64,000 bases of DNA, from positions 448,001-512,000 of the forward strand of contig CAVYTA010000006.1 in the NCBI GenBank assembly GCA_963771355.1, in the 5' to 3' direction. Positions within the stretch are counted from its first letter, which is position 1; every line of letters begins with the position of its first letter. A model generated the notes under the pieces. The model was not told the origin of the DNA, ran no database searches, and was given only the letters and a program-made list of their open reading frames with translations. This stretch comes from an uncultured Candidatus Rokubacteria bacterium (GTDB taxonomy: Bacteria > Methylomirabilota > Methylomirabilia > Rokubacteriales > CSP1-6). This document shows, piece by piece, positions 18,289-23,256 of this stretch. A program made the translations under genes and the position numbers.

Positions 18289-19665
18289 ATGAGCGAGCGC
18301 GCGGCGGAGGTCGTCATCTGCGGGGCCGGGATCGCGGGGGTGGCGCTGGCGTATCACCTCGCGGTGCGACGGGGCATGGCCGGGGTGGTGCTCGTGGACG
18401 AGCGGCCGCCGCTCTCCCTCACCAGCGACAAATCCACCGAGTCGTACCGGAACTGGTGGCCGGGTCCCGGCAACGACATGGTGGCGGTGATGAACCGCAG
18501 CATCGATCTCCTCGAGGAGCTGGCGCGCGAGAGCGGCAATGTCTTTCGCATGAACCGGCGCGGCTACCTCTTCGCCACCGCCGATCCCGCCCGGGTGCCG
18601 GACTTCGTGCGCGCCGCCGAGGAGGCGACCGGGCGCGGGGCGGGAGCCACCCGCCTGCACGCTACTCCGTCGAGCGACTATCGTCCGGCGCCCGCGGACG
18701 GCTTCGAGGAGCAGCCGGTGGGGGCCGACGTCATCACCGACCGGAGCCTGATCCGGCGGCATTTCCCCTACCTGGCGGAGGATACGGTGGCGCTGCTCCA
18801 CGCGCGCCGCTGCGGCTGGTTCAGCGGGCAGCAGCTCGGCATGTATCTGCTCGAGCGCGCGCGCGAGAAGGGCGCGCGCCTGGTCGAGGGGCGAGTGGAG
18901 ACGGTGGACGTCGCCGGAGGACGCGTGCGCGGCGTCACCCTGGCGGGACCGGGCGGGACCCGGCACATCGCCACGCCACGCTTCGTGAACGCGGCGGGCC
19001 CCTTCGCCAAGGCGGTCGGCCGTCTTCTCGGAGTGGAGCTGCCCGTGTTCTGCGAGCGCCATTGCAAGGTCGCCTTCAACGACACGCTGCGCGCGGTGCC
19101 CCGCGAGGCGCCCATGATGATCTGGACCGATCCGGTGCGGCTGCCCTGGACCGCGGACGAGCGCGAGGAGCTGCGGGAGTCCGACGCCATCCGCCATCTC
19201 CTCGAGGAATTACCCGCCGGCGTGCACGGCCGGCCCGAGGGCGCGGGCGAGAGCCCGGTGGTGCTCGGCATCTGGACCTATGACGTCGAGCCGGTGGAGC
19301 CGGAGTTCCCCATCGCGTTCGATCCGGCCTCCGCGGAAATTGTGATCCGCGGGCTCTCGCGGATGATCCCGGCGCTGGGCGGCTATGCGCAGCGCCTGCC
19401 CCGGTCTTTCGTGGACGGCGGCTACTACACCAAGACGGAGGAGAACCGCTTCCTTGCCTGCCCGCTCCCGGTGGAGGGGGCCTATCTCCTCGGGGGACTC
19501 TCCGGCTACGGCCTCATGTCCTCCAATGGTGCCGCCGATCTCCTGGCCGACCATATCGTCGGGCGCCCGCTGCCCGACTATGCGGGCGCCTTCCACCTGG
19601 ACCGCTACGCCGACCCCGCCTACCGGGCCCTCCTCACGAGCTGGGGGGACTCGGGCCAGCTCTAG
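18289..19665 (+). CDS. FAD-dependent oxidoreductase (DAO/sarcosine oxidase-like)
   Basis: GAGIAG FAD motif, VNAAGP, GLSGYG. Confidence 0.88.
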   Translation: MSERAAEVVICGAGIAGVALAYHLAVRRGMAGVVLVDERPPLSLTSDKSTESYRNWWPGPGNDMVAVMNRSIDLLEELARESGNVFRMNRRGYLFATADPARVPDFVRAAEEATGRGAGATRLHATPSSDYRPAPADGFEEQPVGADVITDRSLIRRHFPYLAEDTVALLHARRCGWFSGQQLGMYLLERAREKGARLVEGRVETVDVAGGRVRGVTLAGPGGTRHIATPRFVNAAGPFAKAVGRLLGVELPVFCERHCKVAFNDTLRAVPREAPMMIWTDPVRLPWTADEREELRESDAIRHLLEELPAGVHGRPEGAGESPVVLGIWTYDVEPVEPEFPIAFDPASAEIVIRGLSRMIPALGGYAQRLPRSFVDGGYYTKTEENRFLACPLPVEGAYLLGGLSGYGLMSSNGAADLLADHIVGRPLPDYAGAFHLDRYADPAYRALLTSWGDSGQL

Positions 19666-19742
19666 GAAGAGATGAGACGTAGCCTTTTAAGTTACTAGAA
19701 ACATGATCAAAATGGATACTTCATGTGGTCTCGATCCCGGCG

Positions 19743-19772
19743 TTTCACATCTGCACGGTCGCGGTGTCTCAT
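19743..19772 (+). promoter_or_regulatory. Putative ECF promoter, copy 1 (TTTCAC-N13-CGGTGTCTCAT)
   Basis: Identical bipartite motif with identical spacing at 21317-21346; lies directly upstream of the ECF sigma gene. Confidence 0.7.
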
Positions 19773-19782
19773 GAGTAGAGTG

Positions 19783-20310
19783 ATGGCTGACGAGGCATTC
19801 GAGATCGTGGTGGCCGCCCACCACGCCGAGATACACCGGTACCTCGTGCGCGTGACTCGACGCCCGGGGGATGCCGATGATCTGTCTCAGGAGACCTTCA
19901 TCCGGGCCTTCCGTGCGCACTCGGCCTTGCCGGCAGGGTCGAATGTCCGCGCCTGGCTCTTCACCATCGCGACGAATCTGTGTCGAAACTACTGGCGCTC
20001 GGAGTCGCGGCGTCGCCGGGCTTACGAGGCCGCCGGCGAGACCGCGGCGCACCACGAAGAAGCCGAAGGGGAGGGCGCGATGGTCATGGAGCAGGCGAGT
20101 GAGGAGATCGGGCGCATCGTCGCCGCGCTGCCGCTCCGCCAGCGACTGGCCTTCACGCTCCGCAAGGTCCACGAGCTCGAGTACGAGGCCATCGGCCGGA
20201 GCCTCGACTGCTCTCCCGATACCGCGCGGGCGCATGTCTTCCAGGCGCTGCGCAAGATCCGACGCGGGCTCGATGCCCCGGCCGGGGCCCGCACGGAGTC
20301 CAAGCGATGA
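19783..20310 (+). CDS. ECF-type RNA polymerase sigma factor
   Basis: Region 2: DADDLSQETFIRAF...AWLFTIATNLCRN. Region 4: LPLRQRLAFTLR...YEAIGRSLDCSPDTARAHVFQALRKIR. Start GTG 19780 or ATG 19783. Confidence 0.93.
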   Translation: MADEAFEIVVAAHHAEIHRYLVRVTRRPGDADDLSQETFIRAFRAHSALPAGSNVRAWLFTIATNLCRNYWRSESRRRRAYEAAGETAAHHEEAEGEGAMVMEQASEEIGRIVAALPLRQRLAFTLRKVHELEYEAIGRSLDCSPDTARAHVFQALRKIRRGLDAPAGARTESKR

Positions 20311-21272
20311 CCAGAGAGCCCCGATCCTGTCGTGAGATCGAGCCGGACCTGATCGCGGTGGCGACCGCCGAGGCGCCGCCCGCCGCCGCCCGCCGCGTGG
20401 AGAGCCACGTGGCGGAGTGCGCGTCCTGCCGGAGCGAGCTCGCGCAGTATCAGACGGTCGACGGGCTCGTGACCGCGTACCGAGACACGCGCGCGCTCGA
20501 GGCCGACCCCACGCTGGCCCGCGCGCAGCTCGAGAGCCGGCTCGCGGACCTGCGCAGCCGCATCATGCGCTACGGCGTGTTCGACTCTCCGCTCGGGCCC
20601 ATCGCCATCGGCGTCTCGGAGCACGGGGTGTCCATGGTGGAGTACGTACGCCCGGCCGAGCGGACGGGCGGCGGGTTGGCGCGGCGGGCGGGCGGAGAAG
20701 CGGTGGAGGACCCCCGCCGGACGGAAGGGCTCTATCGCGAGCTGGCCGACTATCTCGACGGGCGGCGCACGCGGCTGGACTGGCCGCTCGATCTCCGGCG
20801 GACCCGGAGCGACTTCCAGCGGCGCGTCCTCGAGGCCACCGCGCGTCTTCCCTATGGGGCGGTGACCTCCTATGCGGGCATCGCGCGCGAGATCGGCGCG
20901 CCGCGCGCGACCCGCGCGGTGGCCCAGGCGCTCCGCCACAATCCACTCCCCATCGTGGTCCCGTGCCACCGCGTGATCGGCAGCAGCGGCGACCTCACCG
21001 GCTATGCGGGGACGCGCATCGGGCTCAAGCGAGATCTGCTGGCGGTGGAAGGCGTTCACACCATGCCCGGTCATGGCGACTTTCACATCGAGCGGCGCGC
21101 CGTCTACTACAAGTACCTCGATGGGGGTGAGTATTGCCTGCCGACCTGTGGTGGCATTCTCGAGAAGCCACTGGGTGACTTCACGGTATTCGGCTCGCGC
21201 GACCGCGCGGAAGCGGTGGGGCTCCAGCCCTGCACGGACTGCCGGCCCGATCTGCATCCGCTCCCCGCCTGA
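20307..21272 (+). CDS. Fusion protein: zf-HC2 anti-sigma domain + methylated-DNA-protein-cysteine methyltransferase (Ogt/MGMT) + C-terminal Ada-type zinc domain
   Basis: C...HVAECASC (HxxxCxxC); SPLGPI, FQRRVL, PYG, RAVAQAL, PCHRV active site; YCLPTC...GLQPCTDCRP. ATGA overlap with the sigma gene. Confidence 0.88.
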   Translation: MTREPRSCREIEPDLIAVATAEAPPAAARRVESHVAECASCRSELAQYQTVDGLVTAYRDTRALEADPTLARAQLESRLADLRSRIMRYGVFDSPLGPIAIGVSEHGVSMVEYVRPAERTGGGLARRAGGEAVEDPRRTEGLYRELADYLDGRRTRLDWPLDLRRTRSDFQRRVLEATARLPYGAVTSYAGIAREIGAPRATRAVAQALRHNPLPIVVPCHRVIGSSGDLTGYAGTRIGLKRDLLAVEGVHTMPGHGDFHIERRAVYYKYLDGGEYCLPTCGGILEKPLGDFTVFGSRDRAEAVGLQPCTDCRPDLHPLPA

Positions 21273-21316
21273 CCGCTCGTACGTTTCCCGTTTTCACGCC
21301 CTTCACGGCTTTCGCC

Positions 21317-21346
21317 TTTCACGTTGCCTGCGCGCCGGTGTCTCAT
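21317..21346 (+). promoter_or_regulatory. Putative ECF promoter, copy 2 (TTTCAC-N13-CGGTGTCTCAT)
   Basis: Exact repeat of the motif at 19743-19772; ends 28 nt before ATG 21375, which has an AAAGGAG RBS. Confidence 0.7.
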
Positions 21347-21374
21347 CTGTGAAGGCACGAGAAAGGAGCGCGCG

Positions 21375-21785
21375 ATGCACATCATCGGGACACTCATCGT
21401 GGTGGCGATACCCCTGGTCGGAATCTTCGGACTCCTGTGGCTCAGCGAGCGCTGGCAGGCGCGCCGCGAGGTCGGGCGGCACCTCCAGATCGCGGTCACC
21501 GACGCGGTGCACGGGGCGCTCGGCGCGGTGGCGGCACCGGTAGTGACGCGGCGCCCGGGCGGCGGCTGGCGGATCCAGATGCGGGTCACGCCGGGCCGGT
21601 CCGATCTGGCCGCGGCGCTCGTGCGTGTGACGGAAGATGTGATGGACCGTGCGACGGGCGAGATGCGGCGCCCCTTCGAGATCGTCCTGCTCCCGACGGA
21701 GGGGATCGGCGCCGCCGGGCACGGTCCGCGCGCCCTGGGCCAACGCAGCAAGAGCGCCGCGCCGCTGGCCGCGGCCGCGCGCTGA
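21375..21785 (+). CDS. Hypothetical protein with N-terminal transmembrane helix
   Basis: AAAGGAG RBS; hydrophobic MHIIGTLIVVAIPLVGIFGLLWL segment. Confidence 0.7.
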   Translation: MHIIGTLIVVAIPLVGIFGLLWLSERWQARREVGRHLQIAVTDAVHGALGAVAAPVVTRRPGGGWRIQMRVTPGRSDLAAALVRVTEDVMDRATGEMRRPFEIVLLPTEGIGAAGHGPRALGQRSKSAAPLAAAAR

Positions 21786-21797
21786 GAGGAGGCCGCC

Positions 21798-21959
21798 ATG
21801 CTCAGCTACTACGCGCTGGAGAAAGTCGTGGAGATGCGGCTCGCCGAGCTTCGTGAGGAGGCGGCGCGGGCCCGGGCGGTGGCGTCTCCCGAGCCGGCTG
21901 CTCGGCCGGCTCCCGCCCGACCCCTTCGCTGGTTCCAGGTCCAGATCTTCGGTCGTTGA
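21798..21959 (+). CDS. Small hypothetical protein, 53 aa (MLSYYALEKVVEMRLAELREEAARAR...WFQVQIFGR)
   Basis: GAGAGGAGG RBS, ATG 21798, TGA 21957-21959; fills the gap between genes; below the ORF-track length cutoff. Confidence 0.65.
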   Translation: MLSYYALEKVVEMRLAELREEAARARAVASPEPAARPAPARPLRWFQVQIFGR

Positions 21960-21966
21960 GGGCCGA

Positions 21967-23256
21967 CTACCAGTACTGCATCGAGTCGCGCAGGATCCAC
22001 TCGAGGTCGGCGGCGCCGACCGGACGCGGCGCGCCGGCGAGAAGGCGCGGCTGCCTGAGCGTACCCTCGACGAGCGCGGGAATATCGTGCTCGCCATAGC
22101 CCACCGCGGTGAGCCCATTGGGGATGCCGGTGTCGCGCATGAGGGCGATGAGCGCGCCGGGCAGGGCCTCGCGGCGCTCGCGCTCGCCGAGCCCTTCGAC
22201 GGGAGCGCCCATCAGGGCGGCCGCGCGGAGGTGGCGGTCGGGGGCGGTGGCATAGGTGAAGCGGAAGGCCGCGGGCGCAGTGAGGATCACCGCCATGCCG
22301 TGCGGCACCATGGCATGGCGGGTGCGGTAGCCGCTGGGCACGTAATCCCGCACGAGCCCGGCGATGGGATACGCGAGCGCGTGGGGAATGTGCACGCCGG
22401 CGTTGCCGAAGCCGATGCCGGCATAGTTGGCGGCCAGTGCGAGGTTCACCCGTGCCTCGAGATCGAGCCCGTTGAGCACGGCCCGCCGCAGGTAGCGCGC
22501 GACGTGCTCCATGGCCTTCTCGCACCAGACGTCGCTGGCGGGATTGGCGCCGATATAGGCGGGCCGGTCCGGCGGATGATGCTTGGCGCGGGCATTGTAC
22601 GGGCGCGTCGTGTACGACTCGATGGCGTGGGTGAGGATGTCGGCGCCCGCCGCCGCCGTCACTTCCGGTGGGACGGTGAGGGTGTTGAGCGGATCCACCA
22701 CGCCGAGGGTGGGGCGCAGCAGCCGATGCGACACCCCCGCCTTGATGTTCTGGTCCAGCACATGGGTCACCGCCACCGCGGTGGTCTCGCTGCCGGTGCC
22801 GGCGGTGGTGGGCACCGCGATCAGGGGCTTGAGCGGCCCCGGCACCGGGACACCCTTGCCCACCGGCTTGTTGAGGTAGTCGAGTAGCGGCGCGGGATGG
22901 CAGGTGAGGAGGTTGGCGGCCTTGCACGTGTCGATGGTGCTCCCGCCGCCTACCGCGATGAGGCCGTCGAACTCCTTGGTACGCGCGTACTCCGCGGCCT
23001 CCTCCATGGACCGGTCGGTCGGCTCGACCTCGACACCGTCATAGACCTCCGCCTTGATCCCCTGCTCCTCGAGGAGCCCGCGCACGCGGTCGGGCAGGCC
23101 CGCAGCGGCGAGATTGCGATCGGTGAAGATCAGGGCCTTGGCCAGTCCCAGCCGGGCGGCGTCGAAGCCGATCTCCTCCATGGCGCCCAGCCCGAACTTG
23201 ATGGGCGACATCTCCATCACGAAGACGGTTTCCGTCGGCAGCGTCACGCCCTTCAT
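21967..23256 (-). CDS. Hydroxyacid-oxoacid transhydrogenase (iron-containing alcohol dehydrogenase family)
   Basis: GGGSTIDTCKAANL, PTTAGTGSETT, HAIESYT, GFGNAGVHIPH, VPHG. Confidence 0.88.
   Translation of the reverse strand: MKGVTLPTETVFVMEMSPIKFGLGAMEEIGFDAARLGLAKALIFTDRNLAAAGLPDRVRGLLEEQGIKAEVYDGVEVEPTDRSMEEAAEYARTKEFDGLIAVGGGSTIDTCKAANLLTCHPAPLLDYLNKPVGKGVPVPGPLKPLIAVPTTAGTGSETTAVAVTHVLDQNIKAGVSHRLLRPTLGVVDPLNTLTVPPEVTAAAGADILTHAIESYTTRPYNARAKHHPPDRPAYIGANPASDVWCEKAMEHVARYLRRAVLNGLDLEARVNLALAANYAGIGFGNAGVHIPHALAYPIAGLVRDYVPSGYRTRHAMVPHGMAVILTAPAAFRFTYATAPDRHLRAAALMGAPVEGLGERERREALPGALIALMRDTGIPNGLTAVGYGEHDIPALVEGTLRQPRLLAGAPRPVGAADLEWILRDSMQYW

Follow-up and report, generated by a model that had tools for sequence, protein, structure and literature searches.

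The window analysed here is a stretch of 64,000 nucleotides from a Rokubacteria contig. The locus of interest within it comprises an ECF sigma gene, a gene for a fusion protein, two small genes and two copies of one motif (positions are those of the window):

19743..19772, + strand: P1, a predicted ECF promoter, with -35 element TTTCAC(A) at 19743-19749 and -10 element (CGGT)GTCTCA at 19762-19771
19780..20310, + strand: ECF sigma factor of 175 aa, starting at ATG 19783 (alternative GTG 19780), with Sigma70_r2 and r4_2 domains
20307..21272, + strand: predicted anti-sigma fusion of 321 aa, with ZAS, MGMT and a truncated Ada-type Zn site
21292..21315, + strand: extra TTCAC-like units (TTTCAC at 21292, CTTCAC at 21301, TTTCGC at 21310)
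21317..21346, + strand: P2, second copy of the predicted promoter, an internal promoter for the small genes
21375..21785, + strand: orfA, 136 aa, with one N-terminal hydrophobic helix; of a conserved Methylomirabilota family and a core member of the predicted regulon
21798..21959, + strand: orfB, 53 aa; relatives have small ORFs like it after the motif or after orfA

The sigma stop codon overlaps the start of the fusion gene (ATGA). The fusion protein combines ZAS ligands (C8, H34, C38 and C41, arranged as C8-x25-H34xxxC38xxC41), the O6-alkylguanine alkyltransferase active site PCHR (C220) and four Ada-type Zn cysteines (C277, C281, C309 and C312). These residues are kept in 175-176 of 176 close homologues, the ZAS motif C/H-x23-26-HxxxCxxC in 175 and PCHR in all 176. 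Pfam recognizes both MGMT domains and a partial Ada_Zn_binding domain, and zf-HC2 scores 22.0 (cut-off 22.2). The MGMT part, ~41% identical to solved OGT structures (TM 0.83), is predicted from its PCHR motif and two-domain fold to be an O6-alkylguanine alkyltransferase. The C-terminus gives a weak Foldseek match to E. coli N-Ada (probability 0.8-0.9, E ~0.35). In keeping with the Pfam and Foldseek matches, C277 aligns by motif with Ada Cys38. Neither orfA nor orfB has a match in Pfam, NCBIfam or the named Atlas families, and the named relatives of the system as a whole are mostly Methylomirabilota/Rokubacteria.

The relatives show some variation in gene structure. In one genome (G057, L103:472-1971), sigma and fusion read as a single 500-aa frame, and in two others (G002 and G006; L002, L007) the fusion gene is frameshifted; these are likely indel errors, since the assemblies are low-contig ones. 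Several genomes of families f4 and f1 (L079, L087, L093, L097, L100, L102) carry an alpha/beta hydrolase gene after the fusion gene. Pfam gives only Abhydrolase_1 for it, and we take it to resemble haloacetate dehalogenases or epoxide hydrolases, an identity that would fit detoxification of alkylators.

The sequence-only reading of this DNA had claimed an identical bipartite motif before the sigma gene and before the downstream small genes, and both 30-mers are indeed present: TTTCAC-N13-CGGTGTCTCAT occurs at 19743-19772 and 21317-21346, with 17 identical fixed bases, equal spacing and different spacers. In P1, 17 nt separate TTTCAC from GTC. A search of the window allowing up to three mismatches returned these two matches, as against a mean of 0.02 in shuffled sequence, where none of 100 shuffles reached two. 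Within the 5.5-Mb genome there are just two exact copies of the pattern, and the 11-mer CGGTGTCTCAT by itself is no more frequent. P2 begins 45 nt past the stop codon of the fusion gene and is followed by a Shine-Dalgarno (SD) sequence, AGGAG, at 21365-21369. The extra TTCAC-like units noticed earlier before this copy are real but not conserved: none of those at 21292, 21301 and 21310 has a GTC at the right spacing and, because just 3 of the 49 upstream regions compared in relatives contain any extra TTCAC, they are regarded as a local accident. They are ruled out as tandem promoters and are probably non-functional. A sigma70 consensus scan of 19500-22200 found no promoter, and no plus-strand terminator was found there. 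Just 5' of the -35 element lies an AT-rich patch (19660-19742; 43% GC compared with ~70%) that is likewise AT-rich in close relatives and is a possible UP-like element or second promoter.

The motif is strongly conserved in its position. Allowing one mismatch and a spacer of 13-14 nt, it precedes the sigma gene in 61/61 distinct upstream regions of Methylomirabilota orthologues; the 62nd row of this set is a Chloroflexota relative, which has a variant of the motif. A second copy lies 3' of the fusion gene in 25 of the 28 readable loci of relatives. The consensus of 56 relative sites is TTTCAC(A/G)-N12-(C/T)GG(T/G)GT(C/T)(T/A)(C/T)A, whose core columns are invariant because the sites were gathered by a fixed pattern. 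With the strict pattern, 86 sites come up in 28 of 31 genomes (reversed control, 0) and 376 sites in 161 genomes of the phylum (reversed control, 3), and in the matrix scan wrong -35/-10 spacings yield only background counts.

The motif also goes together with the sigma factor across genomes. With orthologues called at E < 1e-55, a site was found in 107 of the 108 genomes with a sigma orthologue and in 7 of the 53 without, counts that are given without a p-value because kin genomes are not independent. The sole sigma-bearing genome lacking a site has a one-base variant (L028), and the seven site-bearing genomes lacking the sigma are incomplete MAGs, in one of which a contig end cuts the sigma gene. 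A bipartite -35/-10 arrangement of fixed spacing, lying directly before the sigma gene in its orthologues, is what an autoregulated promoter would look like. The earlier proposal of a cognate autoregulatory ECF promoter, which was to be checked on orthologous upstream regions, is supported both by the 61 orthologues, from none of which the motif is absent, and by the way in which motif and sigma occur together. Very probably, the neighbouring ECF sigma recognizes both copies as promoters. TCAC in the -35 element is common to ECF41 and ECF103, and the genome holds at least eight other sigma-like matches, so another ECF sigma might be imagined as the reader (for example an ECF41-like one, with TGTCACA/CGTC), or the motif might be a repressor or activator operator. 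This is most improbable: the motif tracks the adjacent sigma across 161 genomes and, in other phyla, changes together with the sigma clade, its geometry is bipartite and non-palindromic with one orientation and one spacing, and its -35 element is TTTCAC, not TGTCAC. Some genomes contain diverged extra sigma copies without a clear MGMT partner (L227-L229 in G060 and G050), two of which retain TTTCAC with a -10 element that is not intact. G016 has two complete modules (C119 and C167).

The distance between promoter and coding sequence is itself conserved. The first usable sigma start codon lies 6-14 nt past GTC in 56 of 61 orthologues, and an SD-like word precedes it in only five. Among the other target genes, 12 of 14 SD-less starts fall 6-9 nt past GTC and all SD-led starts at least 17 nt past it, a bimodal distribution obtained in part with a gene caller that favoured short leaders; in the subset called without a short-leader bonus, DUF2652 starts fall at the same 8-9 nt. 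This distribution places +1 about 7-8 nt after GTC, so that transcription would begin at ~19775-19777 from P1 and at ~21349-21352 from P2. The P1 leader to the sigma gene would then measure ~3-8 nt, giving a near-leaderless mRNA. The earlier suggestion of an essentially leaderless sigma mRNA agrees with the orthologues, and GTG 19780 and ATG 19783 are both in frame with the sigma and have no SD. The start site then proposed, 19778-19783, lies a few bases downstream of the present estimate. Two upstream starts, ATG 19723 (the longest ORF) and the in-frame ATG 19771, were rejected because they lie before or within the promoter and are unconserved beyond close kin. The interval 19723-19782 is an annotation trap, in that longest-ORF calling swallows the promoter and ATG 19771 sits inside the -10 element. 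Transcript data came as contigs from four metatranscriptome runs of a single study, in which genes of both strands are covered alike. One contig of 666 nt starts at 21307, ahead of P2, a position compatible with read-through or with carried-over DNA.

A matrix scan of the genome returned four sites above 22 bits: P1, P2, C4:208955 and C1:244187. Anything scoring under 20 bits (C6:2608576 and C7:567796 among others) was dropped, being at the background of wrong spacings. The two distal sites precede DinB_2/MDMPI_N-family genes (G000:C4:209028-209489 and G000:C1:244263-244712), which are two of the 22 DinB_2 matches in the genome. The mini-regulon proposed earlier is supported, with the sigma operon, the small genes and DinB-family genes behind the four sites. 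After the DinB gene on C1 comes an AAA_18 kinase-like gene, an order shared with close relatives. Known alkylation-repair genes had been expected to turn up in such a scan should the alkylation model hold. In this genome, alkA, alkB and ogt are ruled out as direct targets by their upstream scores, the best value before four HhH-GPD genes, alkB, ogt and an ATL-like gene being -1.0 or lower, as against 22-36 at true sites; the expectation holds only in that ogt stands second in the dinB operons of some relatives.

The regulon was extended with 211 distinct sites from relatives, a set that is not random and comes from scanned representatives, not from all genes. The first gene belongs to the sigma operon at 49 of these sites, to the DinB family (DinB/MDMPI/MST-like proteins, the largest distal target class) at 50, to the orfA type at 41 and to DUF2652 at 24. 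Smaller classes are Polyketide_cyc2 (5, usually followed by another DinB), USP (4) and other sigmas (3); no gene was called at 12 sites, and the remaining first genes are singletons or pairs. No glycosylase or AlkB was found as a scanned first gene at these sites. A stand-alone MGMT gene follows a motif-led dinB at nine sites in three genera, in one case fused to an HhH-GPD glycosylase (L034:2-976 in G010, again the second gene behind dinB). In four genomes (L086, L170, L184, L205), the motif precedes other ECF sigma genes or YCII-sigma operons, a possible sigma cascade.

The fusion protein is predicted to bind the sigma factor. The modelled complex of sigma and full-length fusion scores 0.74, compared with 0.00 for the best of three controls; contact agreement between runs is at least 88% and partner pLDDT at least 84. 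The mark set for the complex score is reached by 116 of 157 solved pairs and 2 of 215 mismatched pairs, and the pass may stem from likeness to solved sigma/ZAS pairs. In the model, sigma2 and sigma4 contact fusion residues 12-20 and 47-88, which are helices, and 133-138, which belong to the N-terminal MGMT domain. Both C220 and the Ada-Zn domain lie outside the predicted interface, so that any coupling between them and sigma release must be indirect, by unfolding or proteolysis. If the fusion were instead a mere target gene, the sigma would be under transcriptional or proteolytic control. Such an arrangement would accord with the borderline zf-HC2 score, with the short extensions (24-32 aa) before the MGMT fold of actinobacterial partners, and with the available part of the ECF122 description, which has 'no putative AS factors' (PMC7826278). 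It is nevertheless improbable, given the complete and invariant ZAS motif, the translational coupling through ATGA and a predicted complex that spans both sigma2 and sigma4.

The best overall explanation, which we hold to be probable, is that the fusion is an anti-sigma factor that releases the sigma upon alkylation to act at motif-bearing promoters. Basal transcription from P1 would give a near-leaderless mRNA and, through ATGA coupling, sigma and anti-sigma at ~1:1, and the co-translated ZAS-MGMT-Ada(Zn) protein would hold the sigma inactive. Methyl transfer to C220 (from O6-meG) and/or C277 (from methylphosphotriester) would destabilise the fusion and free the sigma. The freed sigma would fire P1, supplying more sigma and fresh repair protein and thereby resetting the loop, and would also fire P2 (orfA-orfB) and the two distal DinB-family sites (C4:208955 and C1:244187). 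The whole would constitute an adaptive response to alkylators that works via an anti-sigma, not via an AraC-type Ada activator.

As to what triggers release, alkylation is the likelier signal. The same promoter and anti-sigma could also respond to electrophiles that attack the ZAS zinc ligands, or to oxidation of their thiols, as in RsrA or RshA, with the MGMT and Ada modules as co-induced cargo and DinB-type transferases as the main output. The ligands C8/H34/C38/C41 are present in 175 of 176 close homologues and invariant in the lineage, and ZAS proteins are usually oxidative-stress sensors, according to the available part of PMC8999054. DinB-family genes head the distal targets, and DinB (50/211) and DUF2652 (24/211) would suit a general stress of the electrophile or thiol type just as well; thiol transferases are found among the DinB/STL proteins, according to PMC5815605. 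Such a redox trigger is rather unlikely all the same, and the evidence that weighs against it comes from more distant relatives.

Searching with a profile built from distant sigmas (34-50% identity to a Chloroflexota member) brought in 80 metagenome loci. MGMT is at +1 in all 50 distant loci with at least 900 nt downstream, and 63 of 65 distant upstream regions contain (T/C)TCAC-N17/18-GT(C/T): 39 have TTTCAC-N17-GT(C/T), 13 the N18 form, 11 CTCAC-N17-GT(C/T) and two neither. On the opposite strand of the same 65 regions, TTTCAC-N17-GT(C/T) was not found. Five actinobacterial sigma-MGMT loci have CTCAC-N18-GTT, and it is their partners that have only 24-32 aa ahead of the MGMT fold. Of 55 distant partner proteins, 54 have PCHR, 16 have ZAS and one has the Ada-Zn site. 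The 39 without ZAS ligands carry short, helical-looking N-terminal extensions, in none of which homology to the fusion ZAS was detected, and yet PCHR, the location at +1 and the promoter family are unchanged in them. Since the clade thus retains the catalytic motif of MGMT and not the ZAS ligands, alkylation sensing is favoured over oxidation. In five distant genomes, the only match to the pattern is the sigma's own promoter (a Chloroflexota control gave four chance hits), which argues that the ancestral output was MGMT itself. The core circuit would accordingly consist of sigma, MGMT and their own promoter, and the DinB/DUF2652/orfA outputs are, on this sequence evidence, a lineage addition to it. 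In a quick tree, a branch with SH-aLRT 90 separates 44 MGMT-linked sigmas, the actinobacterial ones included, from 28 others, with five long-branch rows left out and the background picked by similarity; the first, larger tree was likewise a quick tree. A full-length Ada Zn domain is found in 4 of 25 relatives and nowhere in this genome. Elsewhere in the genome, an MGMT and Ada-Zn gene without ZAS ligands is coupled to another ECF sigma, unrelated to the first (G000:C5:930139-931900, L064). The next gene is an Oxygenase-NA (PF09859), the motif is absent and this sigma branches outside the clade, so that the genome may hold two independent origins of sigma-MGMT coupling.

A broader evolutionary reading has about an even chance of being right. 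In an ECF122-like clade that crosses phyla, a suicide DNA alkyltransferase would serve as its own sigma's anti-sigma and release it by self-alkylation, giving an Ada-independent response, and Methylomirabilota would have gained an Ada-type Zn sensor and a DinB/DUF2652 detoxification regulon under TTTCAC-N17-GTC promoters. On its own, an autoregulated ECF promoter is nothing unusual, and the interest lies in having the circuit defined and made testable: since the promoter is defined, the anti-sigma predicted and the cysteines named, the question of induction can be addressed directly. Many bacteria lack the canonical Ada activator, and the host here belongs to an abundant uncultured soil lineage. 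If the mechanism is true, enzyme suicide as a sensor would be an input signal new to ECF sigma factors, and an orthogonal biosensor for alkylators could be derived from it. DUF2652, several DinB subfamilies and two unnamed small proteins would be placed in a stress context for the first time.

Among described groups, ECF122 is the closest. The available description places it entirely (100%) in Actinobacteria and gives it MGMT at +1, a CTCAC/CGTCTAC motif of low information content and no putative anti-sigma (PMC7826278); it is classed under unknown mechanism in the accessible part of PMC8999054. The present system shares MGMT at +1, and its promoter, TTTCAC/(G/T)GTCTCA, is similar to CTCAC/CGTCTAC but not identical. 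Actinobacterial sigma-MGMT pairs, taken as a proxy for ECF122, group with the sigma here as a sister branch (SH-aLRT 90, quick tree), and the system is probably the sister of ECF122. However, it belongs to Methylomirabilota/Rokubacteria and not to Actinobacteria, its clade spans Methylomirabilota and Chloroflexota, its MGMT bears a full ZAS and an Ada-type Zn site, its motif is sharp and its regulon extends beyond the operon. Because taxonomy and ZAS differ, and the comparison was made by description and proxy pairs, it is called ECF122-like and not ECF122. If MGMT does act as the anti-sigma, this would explain why ECF122 seemed to lack one. ECF203 also has MGMT at +1 and, as far as its available description goes (PMC7826278), is actinobacterial, with an Ada_Zn and TetR/MFS neighbourhood, no conserved promoter and no anti-sigma. 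The likeness extends to an Ada_Zn_binding domain nearby, but no TetR/MFS was seen at the locus here.

The literature searched, which left most subscription journals outside its scope, contained no MGMT-fused anti-sigma and no TTTCAC-N17-GTC promoter, and the two classification texts (PMC7826278 and PMC8999054) were its sole relevant items. The organization resembles RpoE-ChrR (ECF11), SigH-RshA and SigR-RsrA (ECF12) which, in the partial accounts available, have an N-terminal ZAS and an autoregulated sigma-anti-sigma operon. Like the fusion, ChrR has a C-terminal sensor domain, a cupin in place of the suicide alkyltransferase and Ada Zn site found here. The promoter differs from those of the soluble ZAS systems (ECF11, ECF12). 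With E. coli Ada, which is switched by methyl transfer to its Zn-bound Cys38, the fusion shares a four-Cys Zn site and a PCHR transferase in one autoregulated protein (both points from the accessible part of PMC10814553). Ada itself is marked by an AraC-type HTH and an alkA/alkB/aidB regulon; the fusion has no HTH match, and the alkA-like and alkB genes of this genome have no motif. The domain order is reversed relative to Ada, the Zn domain is N-terminally truncated (Pfam positions 25-65), and the output would be release of a sigma factor, not activation of the sigma70 RNAP.
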